DNA of 28,385 nt, taken from the UHGV virus genome UHGV-0037349. One strand, 5' to 3'. This stretch comes from a virus. Made by a program: the position numbers and the translations under genes. The notes under the pieces are model-generated. The model did not search any database. It was not told the DNA's origin and saw only the letters and a list, made by a program, of their open reading frames with translations. Below are positions 11-22,259 of the stretch, piece by piece; the first letter of the stretch is position 1, and each line of letters begins with the position of its first letter.

Positions 11-1069
11 TTGGTGGGCATCGGAGATCACTTATTATCACGAGTATTCATGAAATCACTCCGCGATGATGAAAAATATAAGCACGCTAAATTCACCTTG
101 CTTGGCAACACTGCATTCAAAGATTTTTCTCTCAAGTTTGATATGAATATATTTAATCATTTCATTTGGGTTGATTGTAATAAGGTTACTCCTTATGTGC
201 AAACCAAAGAGAGCACATATACTAAGATTAAAAATAAAGCCATCAGGTTTTACATCAGAAATTTAATTAAGCACTCAAATTTCGATGAGATTATAGTTCC
301 AGATTGGTGGGGTGCGTCAACTACTTTGCGTGTTACTCCATTTATCTCTAGTGTGAGGGATAGAGCCATCATCAATGGTATGAATATACCTGACCATCAA
401 AGGGAGTTTTTTGGCTATTCCACAAAGCCGGATATTGATTTTTCAAAGCATGTCCTGGATATGAATAAAGAGTTTTTCTCTGAGATTATACCATTTCCTA
501 AATTCGAAGTTGAAATTCCACTAAAAAATAAAAATAAAGACAGTGGCAAGATTGATATTTGCATTTCACTGGGAGCCTCTGCGCCTTTTAAAAAATACCC
601 TGTATTACAATTAGCAAATGTAATAAACAGCATATCATCTTCATACAATGCCAATTTTAAAATCATTGGCTCCAATGATGAAATTTCAGATTACAATGTT
701 CTTATTGAGCATATCGATAACAAGGATATTGTAGCAGGTTTTGTTGGAAGGACTACATTATCTGAGTCGTGCGATATTGTTCTTTCATCTGAACTTTTGA
801 TTGCAAACGACACAGGCATGTTCCATGTTGGTGCTCTGGCAGGGATTAAAACTGTTTGTATTTCGAATGGTACTGGTTTGCATGCATTTGTGCCATACCC
901 TGAGGAATTTTCGAACTGTATTACGGTTTTCCCACCAGAGATACAAAACAAGGTAGGCACAAAAGATTTTATAAATGCACATGGCTGGTCTGGCTCAGCA
1001 ATTCCGATGTCGAATATATCACCAGACGATGTTCTTGCGGCTTGTTATAAATTGCTAAATAAAAAATAG
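11..1069 (+). CDS. Glycosyltransferase family 9 (LPS heptosyltransferase-like) protein; start uncertain and possibly 5'-truncated by the window edge
   Basis: Translation carries GT9-like motifs: GASAPFKKYP mid-protein and LLIANDTGMFHVGALAGIKTVCISNGTG near the C-terminus (compare recalled WaaC/WaaF/WaaQ pattern NDSGxMHxAAAL). The reading frame is open to position 2 with no in-frame stop, and the first start is a TTG at 11. Strongly AT-rich compared with the phage backbone. Confidence 0.55.
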   Translation: MVGIGDHLLSRVFMKSLRDDEKYKHAKFTLLGNTAFKDFSLKFDMNIFNHFIWVDCNKVTPYVQTKESTYTKIKNKAIRFYIRNLIKHSNFDEIIVPDWWGASTTLRVTPFISSVRDRAIINGMNIPDHQREFFGYSTKPDIDFSKHVLDMNKEFFSEIIPFPKFEVEIPLKNKNKDSGKIDICISLGASAPFKKYPVLQLANVINSISSSYNANFKIIGSNDEISDYNVLIEHIDNKDIVAGFVGRTTLSESCDIVLSSELLIANDTGMFHVGALAGIKTVCISNGTGLHAFVPYPEEFSNCITVFPPEIQNKVGTKDFINAHGWSGSAIPMSNISPDDVLAACYKLLNKK

Positions 1070-4667: not shown

Positions 4668-5013
4668 TCTCTGCTCCTGTTGATACGGAAAGGGAAACAG
4701 GCACACCGTTATTCCGCCGCCCGGTCAGCTCCACCACCATTGAACCGTCAAAATTGCTGTTGATGGTGATGGAATCCAGCGTCAGCCGTGGCTCCCAGCG
4801 ACTCAGCGCCACATACACTGCCGACATGACCTGCAGGCGTAATGCCGGATTTTGTGGCTGATCTATCAGTGCCGACAGCAGGGAACCATATTCCCGGCGA
4901 GCAATGCGGCTACCCTGCGGTGTCAGCAGAATGTCCCGCACCGACTGGCGCAGATGGTCAATATCAGTAATGGCTTTACCGCTGGTATTGTTCATCCCGC
5001 TATAAAGCGTCAT
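4654..5013 (-). CDS. Baseplate wedge protein (P2 W-like, gp25-like)
   Basis: 119-aa ORF; start ATG overlaps the V stop (ATGA); gene order V-W-J-I-H-G matches P2. Confidence 0.8.
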   Translation of the reverse strand: MTLYSGMNNTSGKAITDIDHLRQSVRDILLTPQGSRIARREYGSLLSALIDQPQNPALRLQVMSAVYVALSRWEPRLTLDSITINSNFDGSMVVELTGRRNNGVPVSLSVSTGAENGSD

Positions 5014-5588
5014 ACCGGGCCTCCGGTTGTATCGCCGCCTTTCAGGACGCCAGTATGCTGATGCACATCAACCACGATCCCGTTAGAACTCATCGCACCG
5101 CCGCCCTGGGTAACGCCGCCATTGATCACTACTTCACTATTAATACGCGTGCGGTCAGCCTCCAGCACAAACTCACTGGTTTTCAGGGTGATATTGTCGG
5201 CAGCCTCAATAACCATGGATTTGATGCCCCTGACATACCAGCGCCCGGTGGCGGGTTCGTATTCAAACCAGCCACCGTCAGGATGTTCTGTCACGCAGGC
5301 GTCCGCCGACGTCGACGGTGGTGCGAACTGATTCGAATAGACAGCGGGCAGCGCAAAGGCGGTCTCCAGATTGCCGCCCAGACTCAGCACCACCACCTGC
5401 TCACCTTCCGATGGTCGCCACCATGTCCGGGCATTCCCGGCACGCAGGGTCAGCCAGCTGATCCAGTTGGTTTCTAAGTCGCCTGTTTTCACCCGGCAAA
5501 GCCAGTTTTCCCTGTCCACTTCCGTGACTACACCAGTGCGGATCAGGTTGGTGATAAGGCGCATGATTTCGGTTAGTTGTGCATTCAT
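5010..5588 (-). CDS. Baseplate spike/assembly protein (P2 V-like)
   Basis: ORF track gives 5010..5609; the internal ATG at 5588 gives MNAQLTEIMRLITNLIRTGVV, matching the recalled P2 gpV N-terminal pattern. Confidence 0.8.
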   Translation of the reverse strand: MNAQLTEIMRLITNLIRTGVVTEVDRENWLCRVKTGDLETNWISWLTLRAGNARTWWRPSEGEQVVVLSLGGNLETAFALPAVYSNQFAPPSTSADACVTEHPDGGWFEYEPATGRWYVRGIKSMVIEAADNITLKTSEFVLEADRTRINSEVVINGGVTQGGGAMSSNGIVVDVHQHTGVLKGGDTTGGPV

Positions 5589-5632
5589 CCTTCTATAGTT
5601 GCAAAGCAAGATTTTTTTTCATCGTTGTGGCA

Positions 5633-5650
5633 GTGTATGATTTTTGGCAC
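5633..5650. promoter_or_regulatory. TGT-N12-ACA element (possible Ogr-type late promoter activator site upstream of V)
   Basis: Sequence TGTatgatttttggcACA lies ~50 bp upstream of the V start. The motif is short and several copies are expected by chance in 28 kb, so this is weak. Confidence 0.2.
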
Positions 5651-6825
5651 AATTGAATTCTCATATGGAGATGACTGAAATGATCTTTGCTGCACGTTAC
5701 TTGGTCGAGTTGCCTTATGTCCTCAATATTCCAGATGGTGATTATGATTTTCTATATGAAAATAACCATTTACGCTTAACAGTTCACAACGATTACTATG
5801 CACTATTTAAAGATGCAAGCTTATTCCCTCAAACCCTATTAATCGGTACCAGAGAACAACTACTACCACATCACACAAATGAAAGAGGGATAATGAAATG
5901 CCGGACTATTATTTCTCTCGCCAACTATTGGGAATGTTTTGACCTTTTAGAAATATCACATGAAGAACTAATCAACTCTATAAGAAACCAAATAAGGAAA
6001 GAAGATAACTTCCCATCTGTGGAAGATGCTGAGATGCTCCTATCCAAAATGAGCCAGCAAGATATAGATAAAAAAATAGAGTTGGAGAGAAAAATAAAAA
6101 CTGCTAGAGAGATATTTCCACCTAAAAGATCAGAGGAATGTATCGGAATAATAAACCACTTTATAAAACAGTATAGAGTTGCCTTTAAAGATCAATTTGC
6201 AGACGAGATATCTCTTTATCAAGTTGGCTCAGGATTTACCAACGGAGTGTTACAAGAGCATTATTGCGATGGTATTAAGATAAGTGCAATTCCTTTAGTT
6301 GGAGTAATCACCCCATTAATGAGAGAAAGCTGGTATAAACACGATGAAAGTCTCATTGATAATTTCAAAAAACGTTTAATGTCAAATGAATTCAATGAAC
6401 ATCCTGAACTATTATTGATTAGAGCAGACAATCTTGTTCATAAAGGTGCATTTAGATCAGCCGTAATTGAAGCATCAGCAGGCCTTGAAAGCTATATTCT
6501 CAGAAAAATTATTAATGCCTTTCATCGCAATGGTATCAATGAATGCCAGACAAAAGAAACATTAAATAAAAACTGGAAGTTCGATGATAGATGTAAAAAA
6601 CTATTCAAACAACTCTTTAACATCTCTGTACCCGAAATTGCGCCACTTGAGTGGCAACATGCAAATAAAAACAGGAAAGAATTACGTGACAAAATAGCTC
6701 ATACATCACATGAACCAACAGAGAAAGAAACAAAAGAATTTATAAAAAGCATCAATTTATTAATTGAAAAAATAGACTCATACTTTAAGAAAATTAATGA
6801 ATCTAACGAATCAAAAAATTTATGA
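5644..6825 (+). CDS. Hypothetical protein, AT-rich cargo gene inserted between V and S; possible HEPN-like C-terminal motif
   Basis: 393-aa ORF on the opposite strand to the tail operon, markedly AT-rich. True start may be ATG 5665, 5671 or 5680 (GGAG at 5667-5670). C-terminal RKELRDKIAHTSHE contains an Rx4H arrangement. No other motif recognised. Confidence 0.6.
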   Translation: MAQLNSHMEMTEMIFAARYLVELPYVLNIPDGDYDFLYENNHLRLTVHNDYYALFKDASLFPQTLLIGTREQLLPHHTNERGIMKCRTIISLANYWECFDLLEISHEELINSIRNQIRKEDNFPSVEDAEMLLSKMSQQDIDKKIELERKIKTAREIFPPKRSEECIGIINHFIKQYRVAFKDQFADEISLYQVGSGFTNGVLQEHYCDGIKISAIPLVGVITPLMRESWYKHDESLIDNFKKRLMSNEFNEHPELLLIRADNLVHKGAFRSAVIEASAGLESYILRKIINAFHRNGINECQTKETLNKNWKFDDRCKKLFKQLFNISVPEIAPLEWQHANKNRKELRDKIAHTSHEPTEKETKEFIKSINLLIEKIDSYFKKINESNESKNL

Positions 6826-7249
6826 TTATCTCTTCTATAATATCAAAATCAGTATCATAAATTCCAAGTAACCTACGTTTAGCATAACGTATCTGTGGCC
6901 CCTTACGGCTGACGCGATCACGCAAGCCGTAATGGTGAACACGGGCAATGCGCTGTACCTTGCCTTCAAACTGCACGCTGGCAGAATCGGCGCTGGCGGC
7001 AGTTTTCAGGTATTTTGTGGTTCGCAGCTTTGCAAACATCTGACGTTTGATGCGCCCCTTTTTACTGCGTGCTGTTACCCGTCGCGGTTCATAACTACTG
7101 CCATCTGGATTGCGTTGCATCCTGATGTTCTGCTGCTGTATCCGGCGCAGTTCCTGCGCCAGCTGGCGCATCATGCGGCTTCTTGCGGCTGGCTCCAGAT
7201 TCGCCAGCAAGGCACTCAGCCAGTCGTCCACTTTCTGCAGTTCAGCCAC
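6803..7249 (-). CDS. Tail completion protein (P2 S-like)
   Basis: 148-aa ORF; sequence MAELQKVDDWLSALLANLEPAARSRMMRQLAQELRR and position between R and V fit P2 gpS. Confidence 0.8.
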   Translation of the reverse strand: MAELQKVDDWLSALLANLEPAARSRMMRQLAQELRRIQQQNIRMQRNPDGSSYEPRRVTARSKKGRIKRQMFAKLRTTKYLKTAASADSASVQFEGKVQRIARVHHYGLRDRVSRKGPQIRYAKRRLLGIYDTDFDIIEEIIINFLIR

Positions 7250-7673
7250 GTTTCACCGTCCACATTTCTTCAGGTTCATCAGGTTCCGCTATAGCTTCAA
7301 CGCTCGACACACTACCGTCAGTGCTGACCAGCACACGCTCCGTCAGTTGCAGGTTCAGGCTGATATCACAGACATCGTTGCGCAGAATATCCACCTCAAA
7401 GGTGAATAGTTTTTCCCGTAACGCCGGGTTATTGATGGCATCGGGCTGGTTATCCCTCAGCCACAGCAAAACCGGGGCCATCAGCAGATTCTGGTCGCCG
7501 CTGAAATCCTCAATCACCGCGTTCAGGGTGTAACGGTACTCCCACGACATGGAGTTGGCCCCCGTGGCAACCAGCGAACCGTTATCCACAAACAGATGCA
7601 GTTTGTCCGGGTTATTGCGGACATAAGGTACCGCTTTATTGAGGGCGTGGCGCAGGGATTGTGGTTTGTTCAC
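7242..7673 (-). CDS. Tail completion protein (P2 R-like)
   Basis: ORF track gives 7242..7694 from a TTG; a GTG at 7673 is preceded by GGAG at about 8 nt spacing and gives NKPQSLRHALNKAV, resembling the recalled P2 gpR N-terminus. Confidence 0.75.
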   Translation of the reverse strand: MNKPQSLRHALNKAVPYVRNNPDKLHLFVDNGSLVATGANSMSWEYRYTLNAVIEDFSGDQNLLMAPVLLWLRDNQPDAINNPALREKLFTFEVDILRNDVCDISLNLQLTERVLVSTDGSVSSVEAIAEPDEPEEMWTVKRG

Positions 7674-7926
7674 TGTTTCGCTCCTGACACGCAATAATCA
7701 TGTCCACTTTGTCTGCACAGACCGCCCAGGCGGCCTCCGTTTCATCCAGCAACGCGTTCAGATCACCGTTAGTGCGCGGCGCTGCCTGATCCAGCCGACA
7801 CGGCGTCACTCGCGGACAACCACTGACGGTAAGCTGCACCTCCGGTGAGTGCCGGACGTTCCCGCAGCCGGATAATGTCAGCAGGCAAAGGAGTATCAGC
7901 CCAGCGGCGTAAACCCTCGTTCTCAC
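7636..7926 (-). CDS. Rz1/LysC-like outer-membrane lipoprotein (o-spanin)
   Basis: 96-aa ORF with signal sequence and lipobox LTLSGC, proline-rich; overlaps the 3' part of the Rz/LysB-like gene in another frame, the classic spanin arrangement. Confidence 0.6.
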   Translation of the reverse strand: MRTRVYAAGLILLCLLTLSGCGNVRHSPEVQLTVSGCPRVTPCRLDQAAPRTNGDLNALLDETEAAWAVCADKVDMIIACQERNSEQTTIPAPRPQ

Positions 7927-8197
7927 GCTTCAGTTCCTCAATTCGGTGTTGTCGTTGTCTCAGCTGCGCGCTGGTCTGTTCTGCGTCGGCATAGAGCCGC
8001 GCCTGCTCCCGGTTATTGGTTTCAGTCAGAATGGACAGGCTGATAAGCTGACTGTTGCTCTTTGCCAGTGCCTGGCTTTTGCTCTGCAGCTCGTCTGCCT
8101 GCGTGCTGATGGTCTGGCTGGCATCAGCCAGCCGCCACGTCTGCCAGCCCAGCGCCGCCAGTAATAACGCCAGCACAACCAGCAGCAACCGGTTCAT
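7769..8197 (-). CDS. Rz/LysB-like inner-membrane spanin
   Basis: 142-aa ORF with N-terminal TM segment (LLLVVLALLLAALGW) followed by a charged helical region rich in Q/R/E; sits in the lysis cassette. Confidence 0.7.
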   Translation of the reverse strand: MNRLLLVVLALLLAALGWQTWRLADASQTISTQADELQSKSQALAKSNSQLISLSILTETNNREQARLYADAEQTSAQLRQRQHRIEELKRENEGLRRWADTPLPADIIRLRERPALTGGAAYRQWLSASDAVSAGSGSAAH

Positions 8198-8572: not shown

Positions 8573-9085
8573 TCAGTTTGCTCCCTGTAAGCACCAGGCC
8601 ATCTCCCGCGCACGGCGGTTATCCAGCCCCTGATTAAACACACCTTTCACGTAAACCCAGCGCGGCAACTGTCGGCACGCATCCGCCCAGCGCCGCTGAT
8701 TGAGTAATTTCACCAGCGTGGAGCTGCAGGCATTACCTGTCCCCACGTTGAAGGCAAATGACACCACCGCGTCATACACTTTCTGCGGTGGCTGTTGCTT
8801 CACACACCTTTCCAGTGACCGCTCCACACGCAGCACGTTGGAGATAAGCCCTTCTGCTGCCTGTCGTTCCGTAATGGTTTTGCCGGGAATGACGCCAGAT
8901 GTATTACCAATGCCGTCAGTCCATACACCCGCGCTGCACTGATACGGCTGCAGACGACAGCCTTCGTAATCGGCAATCAGTTTCAGCCCCTCCACGGAGG
9001 TGTGAAGCTGCTGAAAACCCGGCAGCGTGGCAGCAATAGCCAGCACGGTCCCGACAAGGCAGCGTTTAACGATTGATGGATTCAT
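8573..9085 (-). CDS. Endolysin, T4/lambda-type lysozyme (GH24-like), probable signal-anchor-release type
   Basis: 170-aa ORF with E-x8-D-x5-T-like catalytic region (ADYEGCRLQPYQCSAGVWTDGIGNT) and a hydrophobic N-terminal segment (CLVGTVLAIAATLPG). Confidence 0.8.
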   Translation of the reverse strand: MNPSIVKRCLVGTVLAIAATLPGFQQLHTSVEGLKLIADYEGCRLQPYQCSAGVWTDGIGNTSGVIPGKTITERQAAEGLISNVLRVERSLERCVKQQPPQKVYDAVVSFAFNVGTGNACSSTLVKLLNQRRWADACRQLPRWVYVKGVFNQGLDNRRAREMAWCLQGAN

Positions 9086-12752: not shown

Positions 12753-14519
12753 ATGAACACCACACTGACACCCGCAGATCTCGATCCCCGTCGGCAGGCC
12801 ATGCTGCTGTACTTTCAGGGATACCGCGTAGCCCGCATTGCTGAAATGCTGGGCGAGAAAGTTGCAACCGTTCACAGCTGGAAAAAACGCGACAAGTGGG
12901 GTGACTATGGGCCGCTGGATCAGATGCAGCTCACCACCGCCGCACGCTACTGCCAGCTCATTATGAAGGAGCACAAAGAAGGGAAAGATTTCAAAGAGAT
13001 TGACCTGCTGGCGCGCCAGTCTGAGCGCCACGCGCGGATCGGCAAGTTTAACAATGGCGGCAACGAAGCCGACTTAAATCCTAACGTCGCCAACCGCAAC
13101 AAAGGCCCGCGCCGTCAGCCGGAAAAGAACGTTTTCACCGATGAACAGATTGAGAAGCTGGAAGAAATCTTCCATTCCTCCATGTTCAACTACCAGCGCC
13201 ACTGGTGGGAAGCCGGAAAAACCAACCGCATCCGCAACCTGCTGAAGTCACGCCAGATCGGCGCGACCTTTTACTTTGCCCGTGAAGCCCTGATTGACGC
13301 CCTGCTTACCGGGCGTAACCAGATTTTTCTTTCCGCCAGTAAGGCACAGGCCCACGTCTTTAAGCAGTACATCATCGACTTCGCCAAAGAAGTGGAGGTG
13401 GAGCTGAAAGGCGATCCGATGGTGCTTCCTAACGGGGCCACGCTTTACTTCCTCGGCACCAATGCCCGCACGGCCCAGAGTTATCACGGCAACCTGTATC
13501 TGGATGAATATTTCTGGATACCGAAATTTCAGGAGCTACGCAAAGTGGCTTCCGGTATGGCTATTCACAAGAAATGGCGGCAGACCTATTTTTCCACACC
13601 ATCCAGTCTGACCCACAGTGCTTATCCGTTCTGGTCCGGTGCGCTGTTCAACCGTGGGCGCAACAAAGCTGACAAGGTGGACATCGACCTGTCCCACAGC
13701 AATCTGGCCCCCGGCCTGCTGTGCGCAGACGGGCAATACCGTCAGATAGTCACCGTGGAAGATGCGGTGCGCGGCGGCTGTAACCTGTTCGACCTCGACC
13801 AGTTGCGCATGGAGTACAGCCCGGACGAATACCAGAACCTGCTGATGTGTGAGTTCGTGGACGATCTCGCGTCCGTGTTCCCGCTCAGCGAGCTGCAGGC
13901 GTGCATGGTGGACAGCTGGGAAGTCTGGACCGACTTTCATGCACTGGCGCTGCGCCCGTTTGGCTGGCGCGAAGTGTGGATCGGTTATGACCCGGCAAAA
14001 GGTACGCAGAACGGCGACAGTGCCGGATGCGTGGTGGTGGCTCCGCCAGCCGTGCCGGGTGGTAAGTTCCGCATTCTTGAGCGTCACCAGTGGCGCGGGA
14101 TGGACTTCCGCGCCCAGGCTGACGCCATCAAAAAACTCACCGAACAGTACAACGTTACGTATATCGGTATCGACTCGACCGGCGTTGGTCACGGGGTTTA
14201 TGAGAACGTGAAAGCGTTCTTTCCTGCCGTCCGGGAGTTTGTCTATAACCCCAATGTTAAAAATGCCCTGGTACTCAAGGCCTACGACATTATCAGCCAC
14301 CGCCGTCTGGAGTTTGACGCCGGACACACCGACATTGCGCAGTCATTCATGGCAATCCGTCGCGCAACCACCGCCAGCGGCAACCGCCCGACCTATGAAG
14401 CCAGCCGCAGCGAAGAAGCCAGCCACGCCGATCTGGCCTGGGCAACAATGCACGCACTGTTTAACGAACCGCTGCAGGGCGAATCCGCCAATACCAGCAA
14501 TATTGTGGAGATTTTTTGA
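12753..14519 (+). CDS. Terminase large (ATPase) subunit (P2 P-like)
   Basis: 588-aa ORF divergent from the capsid operon; N-terminus with LLYFQGYRVARIAEMLG is characteristic of P2-family gpP as I recall it. Confidence 0.9.
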   Translation: MNTTLTPADLDPRRQAMLLYFQGYRVARIAEMLGEKVATVHSWKKRDKWGDYGPLDQMQLTTAARYCQLIMKEHKEGKDFKEIDLLARQSERHARIGKFNNGGNEADLNPNVANRNKGPRRQPEKNVFTDEQIEKLEEIFHSSMFNYQRHWWEAGKTNRIRNLLKSRQIGATFYFAREALIDALLTGRNQIFLSASKAQAHVFKQYIIDFAKEVEVELKGDPMVLPNGATLYFLGTNARTAQSYHGNLYLDEYFWIPKFQELRKVASGMAIHKKWRQTYFSTPSSLTHSAYPFWSGALFNRGRNKADKVDIDLSHSNLAPGLLCADGQYRQIVTVEDAVRGGCNLFDLDQLRMEYSPDEYQNLLMCEFVDDLASVFPLSELQACMVDSWEVWTDFHALALRPFGWREVWIGYDPAKGTQNGDSAGCVVVAPPAVPGGKFRILERHQWRGMDFRAQADAIKKLTEQYNVTYIGIDSTGVGHGVYENVKAFFPAVREFVYNPNVKNALVLKAYDIISHRRLEFDAGHTDIAQSFMAIRRATTASGNRPTYEASRSEEASHADLAWATMHALFNEPLQGESANTSNIVEIF

Positions 14520-15547
14520 TGGGAAAGAGTAAGAAGAACCGCGCTGCGGCGACGAAACAGATCCAGCTTAAAAGCCAGACTACAGCCGAAGCATTCAGCT
14601 TCGGCGATCCCGTTCCTGTTCTGGACCGCCGCGAACTGCTGGACTATGTGGAATGCGTACAGACAGATCGCTGGTATGAGCCACCAGTAAGCTTTGACGG
14701 ACTGGCGCGCACCTTCCGCGCTGCCGTGCATCACAGTTCACCAATTGCGGTGAAATGCAACATTCTGACCAGTACCTACATCCCTCACCCGCTGCTCAGC
14801 CAGCAGGCTTTTTCACGTTTTGTGCAGGACTATCTGGTTTTTGGTAACGCCTACCTGGAAAAACGCACGAACCGCTTCGGAGAGGTCATCGCTCTTGAGC
14901 CTGCGCTGGCAAAATACACCCGACGCGGATTAGACCTGGATACCTACTGGTTTGTGCAATACGGCATGACTACGCAGCCGTATCAGTTCACGAAAGGCAG
15001 CATTTTTCATCTGATGGAACCGGACATCAACCAGGAGATCTACGGCCTGCCCGGTTATCTTTCTGCCATTCCGTCAGCCCTGCTCAACGAGTCCGCCACG
15101 CTGTTCCGTCGAAAGTATTACATTAACGGCAGTCATGCAGGCTTCATCATGTATATGACCGATGCCGCGCAGAACCAGGAGGATGTGAACAACCTCCGCA
15201 ATGCGATGAAAAGCGCCAAAGGCCCTGGCAACTTCCGCAATCTGTTTATGTACTCGCCTAACGGCAAAAAGGACGGACTTCAGATTATCCCGTTGTCAGA
15301 AGTCGCAGCGAAGGATGAGTTTCTGAATATCAAGAACGTGAGCCGTGATGACATGATGGCTGCGCACCGCGTGCCGCCGCAAATGATGGGGATAATGCCT
15401 AATAATGTTGGGGGGTTTGGGGATGTGGAGAAGGCAAGCCTTGTTTTTGTGAGGAATGAGTTAATACCATTACAGAGAAGACTAGAAGAGTTAAATAACT
15501 GGATAGGAGATAAAATCATATCCTTTGGAATATACACATTAAATTAA
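14516..15547 (+). CDS. Portal protein (P2 Q-like), with AT-rich, possibly replaced C-terminal tail
   Basis: 343-aa ORF overlapping the P stop by 4 bp. The last ~40 codons are strikingly AT-rich compared with the rest of the gene. Confidence 0.85.
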   Translation: MMGKSKKNRAAATKQIQLKSQTTAEAFSFGDPVPVLDRRELLDYVECVQTDRWYEPPVSFDGLARTFRAAVHHSSPIAVKCNILTSTYIPHPLLSQQAFSRFVQDYLVFGNAYLEKRTNRFGEVIALEPALAKYTRRGLDLDTYWFVQYGMTTQPYQFTKGSIFHLMEPDINQEIYGLPGYLSAIPSALLNESATLFRRKYYINGSHAGFIMYMTDAAQNQEDVNNLRNAMKSAKGPGNFRNLFMYSPNGKKDGLQIIPLSEVAAKDEFLNIKNVSRDDMMAAHRVPPQMMGIMPNNVGGFGDVEKASLVFVRNELIPLQRRLEELNNWIGDKIISFGIYTLN

Positions 15548-15575
15548 ATGAGTAAGGGCTAGGCCCTTACTCATT
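15547..15575. terminator. Perfect 13-bp inverted repeat between convergent portal and RT genes (probable bidirectional terminator or junction palindrome)
   Basis: aATGAGTAAGGGC-tag-GCCCTTACTCATt overlaps the stop codons of both Q (plus) and the RT (minus). Flanking sequence is AT-rich but has no clean U-tract. Confidence 0.4.
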
Positions 15576-16544
15576 CAATCTATCAATATATTCACTATAG
15601 TTAACATGCCCCTTAATTTTATCAAAATCCTTCTCAACTATTTTCCCAGTCCTCAATAAATGTTTATATGCTCTAATTTTATTTCGATAGCCTTTAGTCA
15701 ATCTAGGTTTATTTTCATGAACTAGAAAACCATGTACTTTTAATCTATTAGGAATCCTAGCTATTCTGAGTTTTTCCTCAGCCACAACCCAATTATCAGA
15801 TAGTAACAACTCTACAACATTATCTTTAAGTTCCTCGATATCAAATGTTTCATCATCACCGGAGAAGGTCAAATCATCAGCATATCTAGTATATTTAATA
15901 CCCGTATTAGAAATCAACTCATTAATCTTTAAGTCAGTTGACCTAAATACTAAATTTGAGATAACAGGGCTACTTGGCGCACCTTGCGGAAGTCTCTGAT
16001 TAAAGGTAAGTAATTCACTCAATTTAGCAGCCTGATCGGCTCTATATCCTATTTCAACTAATGTTGAAATCACTATATCTGAAGTGATCGTATGGAAAAA
16101 ATCTCTTAAATCAATAGACAGGATCCATTTTGCACCACAATGTTTACTTGCAGCTTCATATATCCCATTCTTACCTGGGATAAAAGCATATGCATTTTCA
16201 CTTATGCCAAGACTATGATTAATGCTTAAATGATGAGCGACCCAAGACTGAATGATTTTTATACTAACCTTGGGTGCTTCAATAATTCTTTTTTTCTTTC
16301 CTCTTCCTTTGGAAATAGAAAAAACACGATAGTATTTTGACTTATTCTTAATTAACGAAGTAATAAATTGTGGGCTTACACCAATGGCAACAGACAAGAT
16401 ACTCCAAGAAACTAATGGGGGAAGCCTGAGGCCTTGTAGTCGAATAAGTTCCGCATAATATCTATCTCTCAGCGGTGTGCTCAACGCCTTAAGAAACTGT
16501 TCGGCATCAGTGAATGTGAAAAATAAGGGTAGTGGCGTTTTCAT
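15567..16544 (-). CDS. Retron-type reverse transcriptase
   Basis: 325-aa ORF with RT motifs: FIPGKNGIYEAASKHCGAKWILSIDLRDFF (retron-like F-x-G ... H ... DIxxFF block), LPQGAPSSPVISNLV, YTRYADDLTFS (YADD catalytic box), and a downstream VHGFLV segment resembling the retron VTG region. Size fits retron RTs (about 300-330 aa) and is too small for the Abi-type RTs I recall. Confidence 0.8.
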   Translation of the reverse strand: MKTPLPLFFTFTDAEQFLKALSTPLRDRYYAELIRLQGLRLPPLVSWSILSVAIGVSPQFITSLIKNKSKYYRVFSISKGRGKKKRIIEAPKVSIKIIQSWVAHHLSINHSLGISENAYAFIPGKNGIYEAASKHCGAKWILSIDLRDFFHTITSDIVISTLVEIGYRADQAAKLSELLTFNQRLPQGAPSSPVISNLVFRSTDLKINELISNTGIKYTRYADDLTFSGDDETFDIEELKDNVVELLLSDNWVVAEEKLRIARIPNRLKVHGFLVHENKPRLTKGYRNKIRAYKHLLRTGKIVEKDFDKIKGHVNYSEYIDRLNE

Positions 16545-16715
16545 AAGGTCAATCCTTAAGCAAAGCTGATGAAAACTTTCGTTGATGACGCCTGCGAATC
16601 AGCAGACGTTTCGAAGGAACGACTGCTGATTCGCAGGCGCACATTCTGTCCGCGACCTTCACAAATGAGCATGATGCATACTCTCGTGAACGCCACTACC
16701 AACGTGAATATACCA
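16545..16715 (-). ncRNA. Candidate retron msr-msd non-coding RNA (intergenic region with long perfect hairpin)
   Basis: 171-bp gap between the upstream ORF and the RT. It contains a 17-bp perfect inverted repeat (CGCCTGCGAATCAGCAG / CTGCTGATTCGCAGGCG, 16589-16605 and 16623-16639) with a 17-nt loop and no U-tract behind it. Exact RNA ends and the a1/a2 repeats were not resolved by eye. Confidence 0.4.
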
Positions 16716-17459
16716 CTATAGATGTTTGCGTGCAAGATAAAGGACCCTCTCTATATCAGAACTTTGCCTAGATTTAGTCACTGGAACTATTTCTAACCCT
16801 GACAATGTCATTCTATAAGTTCCGTCATGGCTTCTTAATAAAAATCCTTTCTTACGTAAGTTGTCTAGCTTCCCATTCAGCCAATCAAGTGATTCAATAT
16901 GATAATCGCCATTATCAAGTTGACTGAACAATCTTGGAAGATCAAAGGGCTGACATTTTTTTGCCGCTCTTAAAATAACCATCATTGTAGGTTCAGGATT
17001 GTTTTTAGCCTCATATACAAATGAAGTCACTTTTATATTAAAACCGTTTAATATCCCTACAACTAACGACTCCCACTTCTCGCGTTCTGATAATGTAAGG
17101 TTTTTACAAAAGACATAAAGCACTGCGTTTTGCGAATCAAAGAAAGATAAATTCAAATCAGATATCTTCCCTTTTTTAAAATTACTTCTCGCTAATGCCA
17201 CTAAAGCCGCTTCAATATTGTCTTTATCTGAAAATGGTGAGTAACTAATCAACACTCTTACATTTAGCTTTTCTGTTATTCGTTTCACCAATAAAGATAT
17301 CTGGCGTTTTGTTATACTATTCGAAGCAGACAATGGCACTATTTTGTTAATTGGGATGATCAACAGAATTGTATCCATAAAATCTGTTACATCTTTAACT
17401 TTTATGAACGGGAATTTTACCAACAATTCTGATAATATTTTCTGGTTAGACAAAGCCAA
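16716..17459 (-). CDS. Hypothetical protein, retron-associated (candidate effector/accessory protein)
   Basis: 247-aa ORF co-oriented with the RT, AT-rich, and overlapping the upstream ORF by 14 bp. No catalytic motif recognised; the C-terminal segment (LRKKGFLLRSHDGTYRMTLSGLEIV) could be a winged-helix-like region, which is speculative. Confidence 0.55.
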   Translation of the reverse strand: MALSNQKILSELLVKFPFIKVKDVTDFMDTILLIIPINKIVPLSASNSITKRQISLLVKRITEKLNVRVLISYSPFSDKDNIEAALVALARSNFKKGKISDLNLSFFDSQNAVLYVFCKNLTLSEREKWESLVVGILNGFNIKVTSFVYEAKNNPEPTMMVILRAAKKCQPFDLPRLFSQLDNGDYHIESLDWLNGKLDNLRKKGFLLRSHDGTYRMTLSGLEIVPVTKSRQSSDIERVLYLARKHL

Positions 17460-17970
17460 TCTCCTTCATAATTCTGGTAACCTTCGATCTTTCTGAATTA
17501 ATGGTTTGTAGCCACCCCTTAGCCGAAGCCACTGATGTTTTATTAATCGAAAAACTGCCATTACAGAATATCATCTCAATTTCCGGCTCATAATCAACAA
17601 CTCCCCTAATTGTATATGCCAATGCCATAGTTGAAGCCATATTGTTCAGTGAAGTACGTATTAAGCTCTTTTTAGATTTATATTCACATAAAGTTATATC
17701 GCCAATTTTTTCTGATTTTTGGAGCTCAACTTCTATCTTTCTACTTACACTATCACGTAATAATTTTGGAACATCTGCATGCTTGACCTTGCCCCAATTG
17801 GAATCAATAGTTGAAACAAACTCACGGACGTTAAGAAAACAAGCATAATAATACCGATTAAAAGCAGAACGACCATATGCATCTGCTAATATTGCGTGCA
17901 CCTCCCCCTTTCTATGGGTTGTATTAGCCTGCTTAACAAGGTGGTCTGCTACAAGGTGTAAAACAGTCAT
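17446..17970 (-). CDS. Hypothetical protein, first gene of the retron-associated operon
   Basis: 174-aa ORF, AT-rich, start preceded by AAGGGTAGG. Contains HRKGEVH (an Rx4H arrangement) near the N-terminus; function unknown. Confidence 0.5.
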   Translation of the reverse strand: MTVLHLVADHLVKQANTTHRKGEVHAILADAYGRSAFNRYYYACFLNVREFVSTIDSNWGKVKHADVPKLLRDSVSRKIEVELQKSEKIGDITLCEYKSKKSLIRTSLNNMASTMALAYTIRGVVDYEPEIEMIFCNGSFSINKTSVASAKGWLQTINSERSKVTRIMKEIGFV

Positions 17971-18029
17971 AGTGGTGCCTACCCTTTTAATATCTCTCCT
18001 ATATATAACAAAACGCGGCTAATTTCCAT

Positions 18030-18065
18030 ATTTGCGCGCGCTCGTATCCCCGCCACGCCTGCCCG
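18030..18065. other. Probable cos site (cohesive end region)
   Basis: Minus-strand reading GGCGTGGCGGGGATACGAGCGCGCGC resembles my recollection of P2/186 cohesive ends (GGCG(A/T)GGCGGGGAAAGCA...). Position between portal-side genes and the early region is as expected. Recalled from memory, not verified. Confidence 0.45.
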
Positions 18066-18102
18066 CTTTATGTAGTGGTTTTCATGCAGGTGCATGATCT
18101 AC

Positions 18103-18128
18103 GCAAAAGCCCGCCAGTTCTGGCGGGC
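18103..18128 (-). terminator. Rho-independent terminator-like hairpin
   Basis: GCCCGCCAG-ttc-CTGGCGGGC perfect 9-bp GC-rich stem; on the minus strand it is followed by TTTTG. Lies ~270 bp downstream of the 219-aa gene. Confidence 0.35.
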
Positions 18129-18398
18129 TTCAGCTAAAACGATCCTCAAACGATCATGCGGATTCATGCAGCATAGACATGCACCTGTGCGCCTTTAATC
18201 AAACAGGGAATAATTATTTGTTCAGCGGGAGTAGCAATATAGCGGCGGCTATTGGTTTGGAAGGGCTTATGATGACTGTTTTTGGTTAGAGTTTGAACGC
18301 CCAACATCGCCGGGCGGTGGTATTACTACATCATGGCAATGAGAAGGGTGAACCCTTTGCCAGTTTGTCCGACGATGATGTCCATCCAGAGTAAGCGT

Positions 18399-19058
18399 TT
18401 ATTCTGTTGAGATTGTAGATATTTCGGCTTGTTTTTTCTCTATGTAGATCCGACATTCCGCAAGGCATTTACCTACGGCACCACCGAAGTTTGGCCCTGA
18501 CGAAAGCAGCAATGCATCGACATTCTTGATTGATTCAAAGAAGGAAGGTGAGGTTTCAGGATTAAGGTATGTCATCAATAACATCCTTGCTGAAAGGGTG
18601 CGATGCGATGATGTAATGTAGCTTTCATGTGCTGCATTTCTCTTATCAATAAAATCGTTATTACCCTTAAGAATGTAATCCATTGCAAGGTTATAATCGT
18701 TTTTGTACCTATTAGATTCAAGCGCTAAGGATAGGTACTGGGCACATGATTCCCGCACGTTCCGACATTCTTCTTTTTTTATCTCAATTTCCGTAGCAAT
18801 TTGAGTTTGCACTTTCAGTGCTTTGGTTTGCTGCGCAATATTTTTGTCGAATTCAGATGCTTGCCGTTTTGAGGTGATTTCAAATTGGCGGTGTGAACGA
18901 TTCATAGCCCGCCATGCAACAAAAGCAGTTGCCGCAGCTGGCAGAACAGCTTTTGCGAGGTCAAACCATGGAGTCAGGGGCTCCTTTTGACTCGCAATTT
19001 GTACCGTTACCACGTCTTTAGCGGGCTTCAGTACTTCCAATAACTGAATGATGTCCAT
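18399..19058 (-). CDS. Hypothetical single-pass membrane protein (cargo between cos and the DinI-like module)
   Basis: 219-aa ORF with one predicted TM helix (LAKAVLPAAATAFVAWRAM) followed by a charged helical region; AGGAAAAAGG upstream of the ATG. No homology recognised. Confidence 0.55.
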   Translation of the reverse strand: MDIIQLLEVLKPAKDVVTVQIASQKEPLTPWFDLAKAVLPAAATAFVAWRAMNRSHRQFEITSKRQASEFDKNIAQQTKALKVQTQIATEIEIKKEECRNVRESCAQYLSLALESNRYKNDYNLAMDYILKGNNDFIDKRNAAHESYITSSHRTLSARMLLMTYLNPETSPSFFESIKNVDALLLSSGPNFGGAVGKCLAECRIYIEKKQAEISTISTE

Positions 19059-19259
19059 TGCCTTTTTCCTGAGAAAAAGAAACCATCATAGCAAAAAGCC
19101 TGCCGCTTGCTAGGGGCTTCCCACGCCTAACCCTTCACGAAATTGAATCCTCTCCGGCCTTTTCGTTATCTGTCCGCATTGAGGGCGGCTAACGCCTCGT
19201 ACGGCTCGTTGTTCAACCTTGCTGGCGCCAGAAGCAAGTTCAGACGCCAGCAACGTTTC

Positions 19260-19493
19260 TTAATGCAGCCAGCTGTCGTCTTCCCACACCTTCTGCATAA
19301 TTTTCATCACTTGTTTTCTTTCTTCGTCCAGTTGCAGTCCGGTCAGTTCCACACCGTTAGAGCTACCTTTGCGGATACGAATTACCGTTTTGGGATACAG
19401 GGGGCGCAGATTGCGGTAAAGCTCGGATTCAAGGGCGTCCAGGATAGACTGGCTAATCTTCTGCTCTTTATCGATCATTATTTCAATGCGCAT
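19260..19493 (-). CDS. DinI-family protein
   Basis: Start taken at internal ATG 19493 (MRIEIMIDKEQ...) with GAGGTGA upstream. The C-terminus IMQKVWEDDSWL resembles the DinI C-terminus as I recall it (ETWESADDWF). The ORF track extends it to 19565. Confidence 0.6.
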   Translation of the reverse strand: MRIEIMIDKEQKISQSILDALESELYRNLRPLYPKTVIRIRKGSSNGVELTGLQLDEERKQVMKIMQKVWEDDSWLH

Positions 19494-19503
19494 AAAAGTC
19501 ACC

Positions 19504-19692
19504 TCAACTGATGACATCCATTGAGCGGTTGTATTCGTGGGTTCTGATTTTTGCCATGAGTTCATCTGTTAGTTCAGAAATCCACTGCAAAGCCAGCCCC
19601 TTCTCTTCATCACTACACTCACTAGCCGCTACAAGCTTAAGAAAAAAATCAATGCGCTGGAGCTTCAAAGACTCCAAAAAATAGTCCTGCAT
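19504..19692 (-). CDS. Small hypothetical protein, first gene downstream of the LexA box (Tum-region-like)
   Basis: 62-aa ORF immediately upstream of the DinI-like gene; the upstream extension of the DinI ORF overlaps it in another frame. Confidence 0.35.
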   Translation of the reverse strand: MQDYFLESLKLQRIDFFLKLVAASECSDEEKGLALQWISELTDELMAKIRTHEYNRSMDVIS

Positions 19693-19732
19693 CTTTCCTC
19701 CTATGACACCAAAGCAATGCTGTATACATAAC

Positions 19733-19752
19733 CACTGTTTATATTTACAGTA
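19733..19752. promoter_or_regulatory. LexA (SOS) box
   Basis: caCTGTttatatttACAGta matches the CTGT-N8-ACAG LexA consensus and lies ~45 bp upstream of the minus-strand small ORF/DinI-like genes, in an AT-rich promoter-like region. Confidence 0.55.
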
Positions 19753-19844
19753 TATAATAATCTTACTGATGTAAAACGTTTTTTTACGTTCATCAGCCTG
19801 AAATGCCTGGTATTATTAAGAGCACGAATTGTTAACCCGCGTAA

Positions 19845-22259
19845 TTAATACAGGTTCCGCCACTTATCATCTTCCTGCAAACGCTGGTTCCGATAGAAGA
19901 TACGCAGGCCTGCTCCTGACGGAATACTGCCGCCACGAAGGAGTAAATAGACCTCTTTCTCGCTGCCATCAAATCCTCTGGACTTCAGTTCATAGACGAG
20001 CTGCTGTCGCTGATGGTCTGTAATTCGCTGTTTGTAGTCTTTACGCCGTTTCGGTTTCACCAAGCGTAACCTTGCAGCCAATTCCCGGCGCTCTTTTTTG
20101 CTCATACTGTGCAGGTATTCGTGCAACTCCTTGTCATCCATGCGGGTAATGTCCGTTCTGGTATCCCCATCAGCTGATTTGTCTTTCCCTTGTTGGTTCA
20201 AATTTTCAGCCAGGGGACAGTTATTGCCACGAGTCCAAGGGGCGCAAGCGCCCTGGTCGGCTGCCGCCTCCTGAACGTCAACGGCCTTACGAACCATTTT
20301 CCACTTCACTGCATGAGTGCAGATCTTGCCCTCTGCAATGGGTGACCAGATGCCATAAATACGAATACCGTGATCACCATAGGCGGTCGGCTCTTCGTTG
20401 ATTTCATAAGCGGTTCTGATCAAGTGATATTTGCGGGGAACCAACACGCCGCCCTGCTTCATAATGTAGGTGGCAAAACAGCCAGCATCAGCAGCAGCCA
20501 GAATGGCATCAAGACGCGGATCATCCAGTACCGGCGCACCTGCTTTTTTGTCACCCTGCTGCCTTGCCGCCTGACCAGCCAGCAATCGCAGTTCACGGTA
20601 AGCCTGACGCCCCGGAATGCCAAAGAAGCGGAATTGCTGAACACGATGCAGAGACGCCCAAGCATTAACGTATTCAGCGTTATCACGCAGGGATTTACCC
20701 GTTTCCTTGCTGATCTCGCCAGCCAGACCACGCCCGTCAATGTTCTTACTGATGTATTTCGCGATGTAGCTTGTCGGCGTTCCTTTGCGCGGGTTAATCA
20801 GCTCAGACTTAAAGCGTGGCCCCGTGTTATTGCCCAGTTCCTCGCGGTCTTCACGGATGGCAAACTTACGCAGTAATGCAGTGATGGCGCGGCGGTCTTT
20901 TTTACGCATGAAGCACATGAGATGCCAGTGCACAGTACCGTCATGATGCGGCTCAGCCACCCGCACGCCATACCACCGCAATCCGGCTTTGTGCATCGCC
21001 TTACGAAATGCAGCAAACATGCCGACCAGATAATCACTGCTTTGTCTTACCGTCGCATTTGTCCAGGTCGGGTTTGGTCTGCCGTTATTGAGCGTGGAAT
21101 GGAAACGTGACGGACAGGTGATGGTGTAGAAAACGGCGCAGTCACCGCGCATTTCCGCGATAAGCTCCAGACCTTTAACGCAGGCCATCATCTCATTGCG
21201 GCGATGTGCCGGGTTGCTGCTGCTGGCGTTTACCACATCTTCCATATCCAGCGTGTCTCCGTCTTCGTTCACCAGTTCATGAGAACGGAAAAACTCCAGC
21301 GACTTGCGGCGCTGCTCACGTTTATGCGTCACTGCTTCATAGCTGACATAGGGAGATGCTTTTTTGCTGACCAGACAGACAGCACGCAACTGCTCTTCCC
21401 GCCATTCGCAACGCATCTTCCACAATTTTCGATACCACCAGTCGGCGCAAAGCATACGTGCCAGCGAACCCGGTATGAGTTCATAGGGCACAGGTTTGCG
21501 GCGGTTTCTTTTCCGACGAAGTTTCTCAAACGCAGGCGGGATAACATCCAGACGCAGGGTTTCCGCAGCCACCTTTTCCCATGTCTTGCGGATTTCTTCT
21601 GGCTTAACGTCATCGGTGGCGTACAAATCACCACAAGCGGCCTCAAGACACATGCTCATATGCGCTGCTACCAGGGTGGACAGGCGTTTCACCTGATCCT
21701 GGCTCATTTCAGGCAGGATCAGCAGCCCCTCCAGCCCTTGATGGCTTGCCATAAAACGGAAAGAAACAGATAGCTGACTGTCACGTACACAATCCAGTCG
21801 CTCCAGACATGGCTTAATCGTCTCACGCAAATAGCGGGAATAAGCCTTTGGCCTGCCCAGGCTGCTGAAGTATTCGATACGTTGCATCAGCGGCTTGCTG
21901 ATATGAGAAGGCTGGGCGCTGACATCTGCCAGAATGACCATGTCCGGGTTAAAACGCTGCTGCTCATGCGCCAGCTTTGCCCGGCTAATGAGCTTATCCT
22001 GCTCCATTTCGCGCTGGACAGGATCACGGGATTCATTAAAGAAATAACGCTCCCAGACCTGCTCACTCAGTGCCTCGCGGCGCAGTTGTTCCTGCTCGTT
22101 ATCGGCAGCGTACAGAGTGATCAGGTTTGAAAGTGCAGACTCCGGCGCAACTTCCGCCGGATCCAGATAAGGGTTAATGGCCTTTTTCGGGCCGTTCCAT
22201 GAAAATGCTGCGGCAGCCTCGTTAAAGCCGCTAGAGTTGCTCATATCGTCATGACTCAT
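19845..22259 (-). CDS. Replication initiation endonuclease (P2 A-like rolling-circle initiator)
   Basis: 804-aa ORF with HUH-like motif (TVHWHLMCF) and a downstream tyrosine motif (YIAKYISK); start overlaps the Dam stop. Confidence 0.85.

Follow-up and report, generated by a model that had tools for sequence, protein, structure and literature searches.

Evidence for an intact type IX retron as cargo of an Escherichia coli P2-like prophage

Type IX retrons and their proposed mode of action

Type IX retrons were given their gene order by Mestre et al. (2020; PMC7736814): a HEPN gene and a wHTH gene overlapping by about 8 bp, then the non-coding RNA (ncRNA) and the reverse transcriptase (RT). 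Three members are described in preprints of July 2026, all unreviewed (10.64898/2026.07.14.737667, PMC13405049 and 10.64898/2026.07.14.738597). They are Retron-Sen3 of Salmonella enterica subsp. arizonae (Carabias et al. 2026, 10.64898/2026.07.14.737667), Retron-Kva2 of Klebsiella variicola (PDB 36ht; PMC13405049; 10.64898/2026.07.14.738597) and Retron-Yin1 of Yersinia intermedia, which has the same architecture and for which Carabias et al. (2026) report a ring structure. For Sen3 and Kva2, abortive infection has been shown and depends on the RT and HEPN active sites.

Transferred by homology from the Kva2, Sen3 and Yin1 studies, the mechanism would begin with binding of the ncRNA by the RT, which would copy nt 45-120 into an msDNA hairpin of about 71-76 nt. 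RT-msDNA and the winged-helix (WH) protein would then gather around HEPN dimers to form a higher-order complex, within which the KH domains and the msDNA would block the composite H64/R122 active site, so that the RNase is proposed to be held inactive. On infection, a phage DNA-processing protein would cut or remodel the msDNA; a PD-(D/E)XK or lambda-Exo-like nuclease is known to act as trigger, and with Kva2 T5 D5, a DNA-binding protein, does so too. The freed HEPN would cut tRNA anticodon loops and rRNA, translation would stop and the infected cell would arrest ahead of any phage progeny. The assembly is described differently in the three studies (a ring of 8-10 units, a sheet and an asymmetric 4:3:2 complex), as is the trigger, and the detailed mechanism for any one allele is therefore uncertain.

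A cargo block between portal and cos and its three genes

The locus described here lies in the virus genome UHGV-0037349, and the window denotes the whole stretch of 28,385 nucleotides that was analysed. An AT-rich block between portal and cos had been noted in it, and this was borne out: the retron block has 36% GC, against 54% for terminase and portal and 53% for gpA (19845-22259), and extends between the portal stop at 15547 and a cos-like sequence at 18041-18059. The portal gene carries PF04860 in relatives and is annotated as portal. The P2 cos 19-mer was not found at up to 3 mismatches; a related motif, GGCGTGGCGGGGA, was spotted by eye at 18041-18059, and the cos assignment is therefore a tentative one based on position.

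Homology with P2-like prophages that carry other cargo breaks off at 15502 and picks up again at 18034, which delimits a variable cargo block at 15503..18033 on the portal side of cos. The comparison prophage that gave these edges carries STAS-domain cargo, and the right-hand edge recurred in further comparisons. The flanks are common to 1278 E. coli genomes, only three of which hold the cargo of the window; DUF262, TIR, PIN or P-loop NTPase genes occupy the same position in others. The retron locus is rare (3 of 5426 complete E. coli genomes), and its three copies are 99.3-99.9% identical to the window with reading frames annotated intact, that of strain MFDS1016424 at 99.3%. P2-like phages have a cos-proximal gpQ-gpA defence hotspot with retrons among its reported contents (Rousset et al. 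2022, PMC9122126). Variable cargo between gpQ (portal) and gpA, adjoining cos, is what defines that hotspot, and the interruption of the portal-cos junction seen here is this known site.

The convergent portal and RT stop codons are separated by a hairpin at 15540..15582 (inverted repeat I2, 20-nt arms, core AATGAGTAAGGGC/GCCCTTACTCATT), a candidate bidirectional terminator. A promoter and terminator scan gave no more sites than shuffled sequence, and a consensus promoter scan upstream of the HEPN gene gave no convincing sigma-70 site. Structure prediction and Foldseek gave no significant match for a neighbouring 219-aa protein.

The 325-aa RT with retron-type motifs that the original prediction described is present on the minus strand at 15567..16544 and carries FIPGK, IDLRDFF, LPQGAPSSPVISNLV and YADD (residues 221-224). 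The profile search proposed for it returned PADLOC RT_IX (6.2e-129, 427.6 bits, protein residues 1-324 against positions 1-316 of the 317 in the model), the next-best RT model being RT_II-A at 224 bits, and places the enzyme with retrons rather than with group II intron, DGR or Abi RTs. In the PDB it aligned end to end with 36ht_A, 'Retron-Kva2 Reverse Transcriptase' (2.6e-145, 64% identity); the retron RTs of Ec86, Ec67, Ec83 and Ec78 were further matches. Residues R73, F75, D223 and D224, important by mutation or structure in the type IX studies, are kept. Table S1 of 10.64898/2026.07.14.737667 already includes a near-identical E. coli RT (MFDS1016424, WP_088551309.1) as a type IX homologue.

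The 174-aa protein, encoded on the minus strand at 17446..17970, matched PADLOC HEPN_IX over its full length (1.4e-52) and PDB 36ht_I, 'Retron-Kva2 HEPN', from residues 1-174 to 1-174 (5e-67, 60% identity). It is HEPN-like without the canonical Rx4-6H motif and has the distant catalytic histidine and arginine (H64, R122) of the type IX effectors; H10, Q14 and Y40-42 are kept as well. This homology makes it the non-canonical HEPN RNase that serves type IX retrons as effector or toxin.

Two overlapping ORFs of 174 and 247 aa had been predicted and both are present, but the second is most likely shorter. Its longest form (16716-17459, TTG start) has 247 aa, whereas a start at the TTG at 17453 gives 245 aa (16716..17453, minus strand) and an 8-bp overlap with the HEPN gene, as in the RefSeq annotation and in relatives. 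The protein matched PADLOC HTH_IX over its full length (1.5e-61) and PDB 36ht_B, 'Retron-Kva2 WH', end to end (3.6e-78, 51% identity), consistent with a C-terminal winged helix; the tandem N-terminal KH domains are an assignment taken from 10.64898/2026.07.14.737667. We conclude by homology that it is the KH-KH-winged-helix partner of type IX retrons. Residues R50, Q51, K57, D190, N193, D197, R200, K201 and R207 are kept; the sole checked validated residue that is not is N54, a backbone contact in the Kva2 WH protein, which is L in the window.

Close relatives were obtained individually by encoding contig, giving 12 loci; a search of genome contigs with the single RT protein gave no confirmed relative, and a contig search with an alignment gave, among the matches listed, distant relatives at no more than 44% identity and other retron types. 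The order HEPN, wHTH, ncRNA, RT on one strand is found in the window and all 12 relatives. Eleven of the 12 share the spacing 174 aa, 245 aa, about 171 bp and RT in varied genomic contexts; the exception is a Morganella locus (L088), whose middle gene is annotated with a shorter length of 200 aa. Prophages, satellite-like islands and chromosomal sites alike keep the three genes and the RNA together. A Kva2-like relative (L082) has an RT 98% identical to that of 36ht, and a Sen3-like relative (L085) is 98% identical to the published Sen3 primers.

Retron-Sen3 has the same four parts in the same order, with the same lengths (174/245/325 aa) and the same residue numbering as the window (H64, R122, D223/D224, D197/R200/K201/R207). 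The window proteins are 87% (RT, against P0002/L085), 87% (HEPN) and 92% (WH) identical to those of the Sen3-like locus, and nucleotide divergence from Retron-Sen3 is about 12% over primer stretches. The carriers differ, being an E. coli P2-like prophage for the window and an integrase/AlpA/DUF927 island for the Sen3-like loci that were fetched. Homology to Retron-Kva2 is full length for all three proteins; the RT there has 327 aa. Retron-Yin1 is more remote: its RT in Table S1 is clearly diverged, judged by eye, its msDNA measures 70 nt and R116 is the catalytic arginine of its HEPN, while its HTH residues D199/R202/K203/R209 correspond to D197/R200/K201/R207 here. Ec67, Ec73 and Ec86, of P2/P4-type elements, are likewise retron cargo next to the cos of a P2-family element; their effectors are presumably TOPRIM-fused RT and NDT-like, unlike those of the window. 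Their RTs match the window RT only at E 1e-21 to 1e-34.

The msr-msd RNA

The original prediction had set a 171-bp gap at 16545-16715 as the zone in which to look for msr-msd. The gap exists and holds a structured RNA, but the ncRNA runs from 16700 to 16528 and enters the RT gene. Conservation, a consensus fold and a covariance model delimit it as a 173-nt retron ncRNA (16528..16700, minus strand), in which nt n is window coordinate 16701 minus n; this numbering was checked against the published Kva2 positions through L082. Across 10 loci, the Kva2-like and Sen3-like ones among them, the conserved stretch spans precisely nt 1 to nt 173, with a mean identity of 91%. The single-sequence fold has z = -6.5, and the consensus fold of the close relatives comprises 61 pairs, eight of them with compensatory changes. 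The covariance search, which had been proposed, found the same RNA upstream of the RT in nine distant loci, where 38 of the 61 pairs covary in an alignment fitted to the model (0 of 500 shuffles as high).

The a1 arm of the closing stem (nt 1-12, GGUAGUGGCGUU; 16689..16700, minus strand) is a perfect 12-nt complement of the a2 arm (nt 162-173, AACGCCACUACC; 16528..16539, minus strand), which lies inside RT codons 2-6 and is supported by complementarity, conservation and covariation. RNAalifold draws 11 pairs of this stem; all are invariant among close relatives, and both sides have changed in 10 of the 11 in the distant loci. A single-sequence fold had instead closed the RNA by pairing an upstream 'CGUUGGUAGUG' with nt 111-121, and was rejected because the upstream bases are not conserved and show no covariation, whereas nt 1-12/162-173 are perfect and covarying. 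That the a2 arm falls on RT codons 2-6 is a conserved feature, and helix 4 is situated between the Shine-Dalgarno sequence and the AUG.

Msr stem-loop 1 (nt 18-34; 16667..16683, minus strand) corresponds to Kva2 G18-C34, the hairpin contacted by the RT thumb, and has compensatory or wobble changes at three pairs among relatives. The msd template (nt 45-120; 16581..16656, minus strand) was mapped by homology to G45-C120, which is reverse-transcribed in Kva2; the predicted 76-nt msdDNA would read GTTGATGACGCCTGCGAATCAGCAGACGTTTCGAAGGAACGACTGCTGATTCGCAGGCGCACATTCTGTCCGCGAC. It holds a 22-nt inverted repeat (16589-16610/16618-16639), and its loop tip TCCTTCGAAAC is invariant in 10 loci and identical to that of Retron-Sen3. 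Direct comparison of the msd with the Sen3 primer sequence for this region shows 3 differences over 65 positions, two of them a compensatory pair. Stem-loop 3 (nt 121-140; 16561..16580, minus strand) is a conserved hairpin homologous to Kva2 stem-loop 3, and would supply the branching G at nt 140 (16561) and the opposing G at nt 121 (16580). For Kva2, Hayashi et al. (10.64898/2026.07.14.738597) give G139 and G121, which were themselves inferred.

The RNA can be numbered position for position with that of Kva2 across a1/a2, stem-loop 1, the msd base-triple region, the linker and stem-loop 3, with one extra U in the stem-loop 3 loop and one nucleotide fewer before the AUG. The a1/a2 stem, stem-loop 1, the msd hairpin with its invariant tip and stem-loop 3 are common to the window and its relatives. 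The RT adjoins a structured ncRNA with the a1/a2 repeat, msr hairpin and msd hairpin that mark a retron, and the 91% ncRNA identity to msDNA-making relatives suggests that an msDNA branched from a guanosine 2'-OH would be produced. An Rfam scan of 15000-19500 gave no ncRNA match, only spurious hairpin matches (MIR405, produced by the hairpin at 15540..15582, RsaD and a CRISPR repeat), which indicates that Rfam has no usable type IX model.

Competing readings and what the locus means

We put at roughly 92% the probability that an E. coli P2-like prophage carries here, in its cos-proximal hotspot, an intact type IX retron, a defence system of four parts that would act by abortive infection. The gene order can be read from the DNA itself, and the four parts are close, full-length homologues of experimentally characterised systems. 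Anti-phage abortive infection by the window allele would be expected from homology to Sen3, Kva2 and Yin1. Reading the block as an anti-phage module, a retron whose ncRNA is accompanied by two partner genes, was correct, consistent with PADLOC, 36ht and the published order (PMC7736814). The partners had further been proposed as a new effector pair, a toxin/sensor combination unrelated to catalogued effectors, on the ground that their order and sizes fell outside known retron effectors. Pfam returned no domain and PHROGs no family for either protein, RefSeq labels both 'hypothetical protein', and the statement that they have no recognisable catalytic domains holds for Pfam, but matches in PADLOC and the PDB mark the 174-aa protein as a HEPN RNase. 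The proposal of a new pair is refuted, since both proteins match type IX-specific models full length, are 51-60% identical to named chains of the solved complex and stand in an architecture published in 2020. The remote-homology search proposed for them yielded the known type IX HEPN and WH proteins, and type IX had been missing from the list of effectors considered.

An RT of another class (group II intron, DGR or Abi/UG-DRT) beside unrelated phage morons is scarcely credible. The PDB also gave weak matches to RTs of group II introns (E 1e-6 to 8e-5), but these are outweighed by RT_IX on top at 427 bits, and the best 25 of 73 PADLOC matches are all retron RT models. Pfam gives RVT_1 only, without a maturase (GIIM) domain, no Rfam intron family was found in 15000-19500, and 14500-19900 has no direct repeat longer than 34 nt and no long one of the template/variable type. 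On these data and the synteny, which argues against independent morons, we rejected the intron, DGR and moron readings. A silent or decayed passenger, type IX by descent yet either not expressed or incapable of assembly or triggering, and hence giving no defence, is improbable too. It would fit the lack of a clear promoter match upstream of the HEPN gene, the N54L change and the rarity of the locus in E. coli, but each of the three ORFs is intact over its full length, nearly all tested catalytic and contact residues are kept, the a1/a2 stem and msd tip are invariant and the three E. coli copies retain intact annotated frames. HEPN alone is toxic in published type IX data, so that a system that had decayed or lost its guard while its HEPN stayed intact would be counter-selected.

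Taken as an intact type IX retron, the E. coli P2-borne allele may still differ functionally from Sen3, Kva2 and Yin1. The overlap of a2 with the RT gene, with helix 4, could make ncRNA folding and RT translation mutually exclusive, an idea not found in the parts of the three July 2026 preprints that were consulted; if true, this would amount to built-in control of RT dosage. We regard this two-part reading as unlikely. The divergence cited for a functional difference comprises about 12% of protein sequence from Sen3, three msd-stem changes and WH N54L, and the published systems themselves vary in trigger and assembly.

The locus is an intact but ordinary copy of an already known type IX retron: the family was defined in 2020, its structure was solved in 2026, standard defence-finder models detect it and the E. 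coli allele is already tabulated. For defence genes, missing Pfam domains are no evidence of novelty, and it was PADLOC and PDB sequence searches that resolved identity here. The locus adds one documented cargo to the gpQ-cos hotspot. Being a type IX retron native to E. coli and borne by a P2-like prophage, it also lends itself to coliphage experiments in its own host.

A type IX retron with two known partners

The block between portal and cos carries, on the minus strand, a HEPN gene (17446-17970, 174 aa), a WH gene (16716-17459, 247 aa from TTG as the longest ORF) and an RT gene (15567-16544, 325 aa), in agreement with the two overlapping ORFs, 171-bp gap and RT of the original prediction. 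Every RT motif that it quoted was found, with YADD at residues 221-224. In profile searches, the RT matched RVT_1 in Pfam (4.3e-23) and RT_IX in PADLOC over its full length (6.2e-129, 427.6 bits), ahead of the next retron type at 224 bits. The two partners had been described as lacking recognisable catalytic domains. Pfam and PHROGs indeed contain no match to the HEPN or WH protein, which is why they had appeared unrecognisable, but PADLOC identifies both over their full length as HEPN_IX (1.4e-52) and HTH_IX (1.5e-61). A PDB sequence search further aligned all three proteins end-to-end with chains of the Retron-Kva2 complex (PDB: 36ht), at 60% identity for HEPN (5e-67), 51% for WH (3.6e-78) and 64% for RT (2.6e-145). 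The reading of the block as a retron thus stands, whereas the proposal of a new effector pair does not. Type IX was defined by Mestre et al. 2020 as a HEPN gene and an overlapping wHTH gene followed by ncRNA and RT (PMC7736814).

The likeliest start of the WH gene is the TTG at 17453, giving 245 aa and an 8-bp overlap with the HEPN gene, as in the RefSeq annotation and likewise in Kva2 and most relatives fetched. We evaluated residues that matter by mutation or structure in three preprints (10.64898/2026.07.14.737667; PMC13405049; 10.64898/2026.07.14.738597). HEPN keeps H64 and R122 of the composite active site, Y40-42, H10 and Q14; RT keeps R73, F75, D223 and D224; and WH keeps R50, Q51, K57, D190, N193, D197, R200, K201 and R207. 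The sole exception among those checked is WH N54, a reported backbone contact in Kva2 (10.64898/2026.07.14.738597; PMC13405049), which is leucine in the window.

The ncRNA and its overlap with the RT start

A structure and covariance search at the gap had been proposed for msr-msd. Alignment of the intergenic region with nine relatives (10 loci in all) showed that conservation begins sharply at GGTAGTGGCGTT (16700) and ends at AACGCCACTACC (16528), 17 nt into the RT ORF, delimiting a 173-nt minus-strand ncRNA. Its mean identity across these loci (91%) exceeds the protein identities, and its termini are perfect complements that form an a1/a2 closing stem. Numbering was calibrated on L082, a Kva2-like metagenomic locus whose RT shares 98% identity with 36ht_A, using Kva2 positions from Hayashi et al. 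(10.64898/2026.07.14.738597). RNA positions G1, A17, G18-C34, A35, A42, G44, G45, A52, G121, G139 and C173 all fit, as do msdDNA positions dG1, dA5, dT6, dA8, C9, G10, C58, G59, C60, A61, A63, T64-T69 and A70-C76; no checkable published position misfits. The transferred map places the a1 arm at nt 1-12 (16700-16689), msr stem-loop 1 at nt 18-34 (16683-16667), the msd template at nt 45-120 (16656-16581), stem-loop 3 at nt 121-140 (16580-16561) and the a2 arm at nt 162-173 (16539-16528), within RT codons 2-6. The msd template contains a 22-nt inverted repeat (16589-16639), and its RNA loop tip, TCCTTCGAAAC, is invariant among the aligned loci. Its complement as DNA contains GAAGGA and corresponds to the msDNA tip that WH residues D197/R200/K201 read. 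An unusual branching G is proposed in Kva2 at G139, the 3' end of stem-loop 3 (10.64898/2026.07.14.738597), and we infer that its counterpart in the window would be nt 140 (16561).

RNAalifold on the ten loci gave 61 pairs, 8 with compensatory changes. A covariance model made from this alignment found the same RNA in nine distant loci (RT identity 38-44%; E-values 8e-25 to 8e-9), directly 5' of the RT start and extending over it. Loci with RTs of other retron types (L011-L020) gave no full-length sense-strand match; one of them, L014, had a partial antisense match to the msd stem only. With the distant loci aligned by fitting to the model, 88% of cells pair (33-44% with partners slid), both sides change in 38 of 61 pairs, and none of 500 shuffles matched these values.

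Within 16528-16556 (minus strand), the position of a2 in RT codons 2-6 agrees with M1, P4 and P6 being invariant across the RT family. Another helix joins nt 43-48 to nt 151-156 and falls between the Shine-Dalgarno AAGGA and the AUG, and the a1/a2 stem covaries in the distant loci with its RT-start overlap retained. Together these features raise the possibility that ncRNA folding may compete with, and so be coupled to, initiation of RT translation.

Prophage setting and neighbouring genes

The window is a P2/186-like prophage of E. coli, carrying genes for the tail fibre, baseplate, gpS/gpR, capsid, terminase, portal, gpA, Dam methylase, CI repressor and integrase. As predicted, the retron block is AT-rich (36% GC, against 54% in the adjoining terminase and portal genes and 53% in gpA). 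Homology to another P2-like prophage, whose cargo differs, ends at 15502 and restarts at 18034, the latter edge being reproduced in further genome comparisons. Just past it lies a GGCGTGGCGGGGA motif (18041-18059), spotted by eye, which we take to be cos from its resemblance to that of P2/186. A RefSeq pseudogene in L001, a near-identical E. coli PSJ-12 record ('hypothetical protein, internal stop'; 8580-8768, window 17979-18167, minus strand), spans this region and probably reflects misannotation of packaging sequence that is non-coding. At the other edge, a near-perfect hairpin (15540-15582, core AATGAGTAAGGGC-tag-GCCCTTACTCATT) lies precisely between the stops of the convergent portal (15547) and RT (15567) genes and is likely a bidirectional terminator; it produced spurious Rfam matches to MIR405 and RsaD.

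P2-like prophages of Pantoea and Klebsiella variicola carry the module at this portal-side position too, and the Klebsiella locus is collinear with the window from terminase to cos at 80% identity. Elsewhere the module lies in integrase/AlpA/DUF927 islands, near conjugation genes and at plain chromosomal sites. Because the four-part module moves as one unit through these varied contexts, the alternative that the partner ORFs are independently carried morons is ruled out. Only 3 of 5426 complete E. coli genomes have the module, and 1278 E. coli genomes carry other cargo between the same flanks (DUF262, TIR, PIN, P-loop NTPase, STAS). In P2-like phages, the gpQ-gpA region near cos is a described defence hotspot, retrons included (Rousset et al. 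2022, PMC9122126). A SIR2_2-domain gene pair directly downstream of the L082 retron (4720-7984) and a CcdA/CcdB pair in the Musicola locus L091 (4641-5167) agree with the reported clustering of type IX near defence and toxin-antitoxin genes.

On the gpA side of cos, the same hotspot holds a 219-aa orphan ORF (18399-19058, minus strand), at the tin/old position of P2. Searches of Pfam, PADLOC and PHROGs found no match to it; of its 27 homologue clusters, those named in their source are enterobacterial 'hypothetical' proteins and the others are nameless. Two of its three carriers among 5426 E. coli genomes have STAS-domain cargo and no retron, which makes it independent of the retron. In the AlphaFold2 model (pLDDT 79), a disordered N-terminus is followed by a hydrophobic stretch and then by a long helix that packs into a four-helix bundle, for which the best Foldseek matches in the PDB, Tar/Tsr-type sensor bundles, are not significant (E at least 0.07). 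The protein is a candidate for single-gene exclusion or defence. A 393-aa ORF (5644-6825, plus strand), part of a 35% GC island, sits between gpV (5010-5609) and gpS (6803-7249) and runs on the opposite strand; this is where P2 has its 'orf30' moron. The ORF matches phrog_28299 of unknown function (3e-277) and, sub-threshold, a class I tRNA-synthetase catalytic domain, with no PADLOC match. A 352-aa ORF (11-1069, plus strand) in a 36% GC island adjoining the tail-fibre assembly gene (1080-1475) matches Glyco_transf_9 (heptosyltransferase; 2.9e-7, above the cut-off of Pfam) and is possibly an LPS-modifying lysogenic-conversion gene.

Closest relatives and mechanism by homology

Retron-Sen3 stretches in the primer table of Carabias et al. 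(10.64898/2026.07.14.737667) are 98% identical to the Sen3-like locus L085 and 88% to the window. Between L085 and the window, protein identity is 87% for HEPN, 92% for WH and 87% for RT; the window msd differs from that of Sen3 at 3 of 65 positions, two of which form a compensatory pair when the sequences are compared directly. Type IX RTs in Table S1 of that preprint include WP_088551309.1 of E. coli MFDS1016424, whose visible N-terminal sequence is one residue off the window RT. Since the MFDS1016424 locus is also 99.3% identical to the window, this allele is already catalogued. Judged by sequence, the retron is an intact member of a family that has been defined, solved structurally and studied mechanistically, and both the module and its hotspot are already known.

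The three July 2026 preprints share a core logic and differ in assembly and trigger (10.64898/2026.07.14.737667; PMC13405049; 10.64898/2026.07.14.738597). HEPN alone is toxic and is neutralised by WH or RT-msDNA-WH (10.64898/2026.07.14.738597); in the higher-order complex, msDNA and KH domains occlude the HEPN dimer active site (10.64898/2026.07.14.737667; PMC13405049). The assembly is a ring of 8-10 units in Yin1 (10.64898/2026.07.14.737667), and a sheet or an asymmetric 4 RT : 3 WH : 2 HEPN particle in Kva2 (PMC13405049; 10.64898/2026.07.14.738597). HEPN is set free when a phage factor acts on the msDNA. Reported triggers are the Bas14 PD-(D/E)XK nuclease B14T, a Bas24 lambda-Exo-like exonuclease and T5 D5 as a winged-helix mimic (10.64898/2026.07.14.737667; PMC13405049; 10.64898/2026.07.14.738597). 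HEPN then cleaves tRNA anticodon loops, and in one study rRNA too, with growth arrest and zero phage burst as the outcome (10.64898/2026.07.14.737667; 10.64898/2026.07.14.738597). By analogy, HEPN in this prophage would be held inactive by msDNA and KH domains blocking its dimer active site until a phage factor acts on the msDNA and releases it; the freed HEPN would then cut tRNA anticodon loops, arresting growth and yielding no phage burst.
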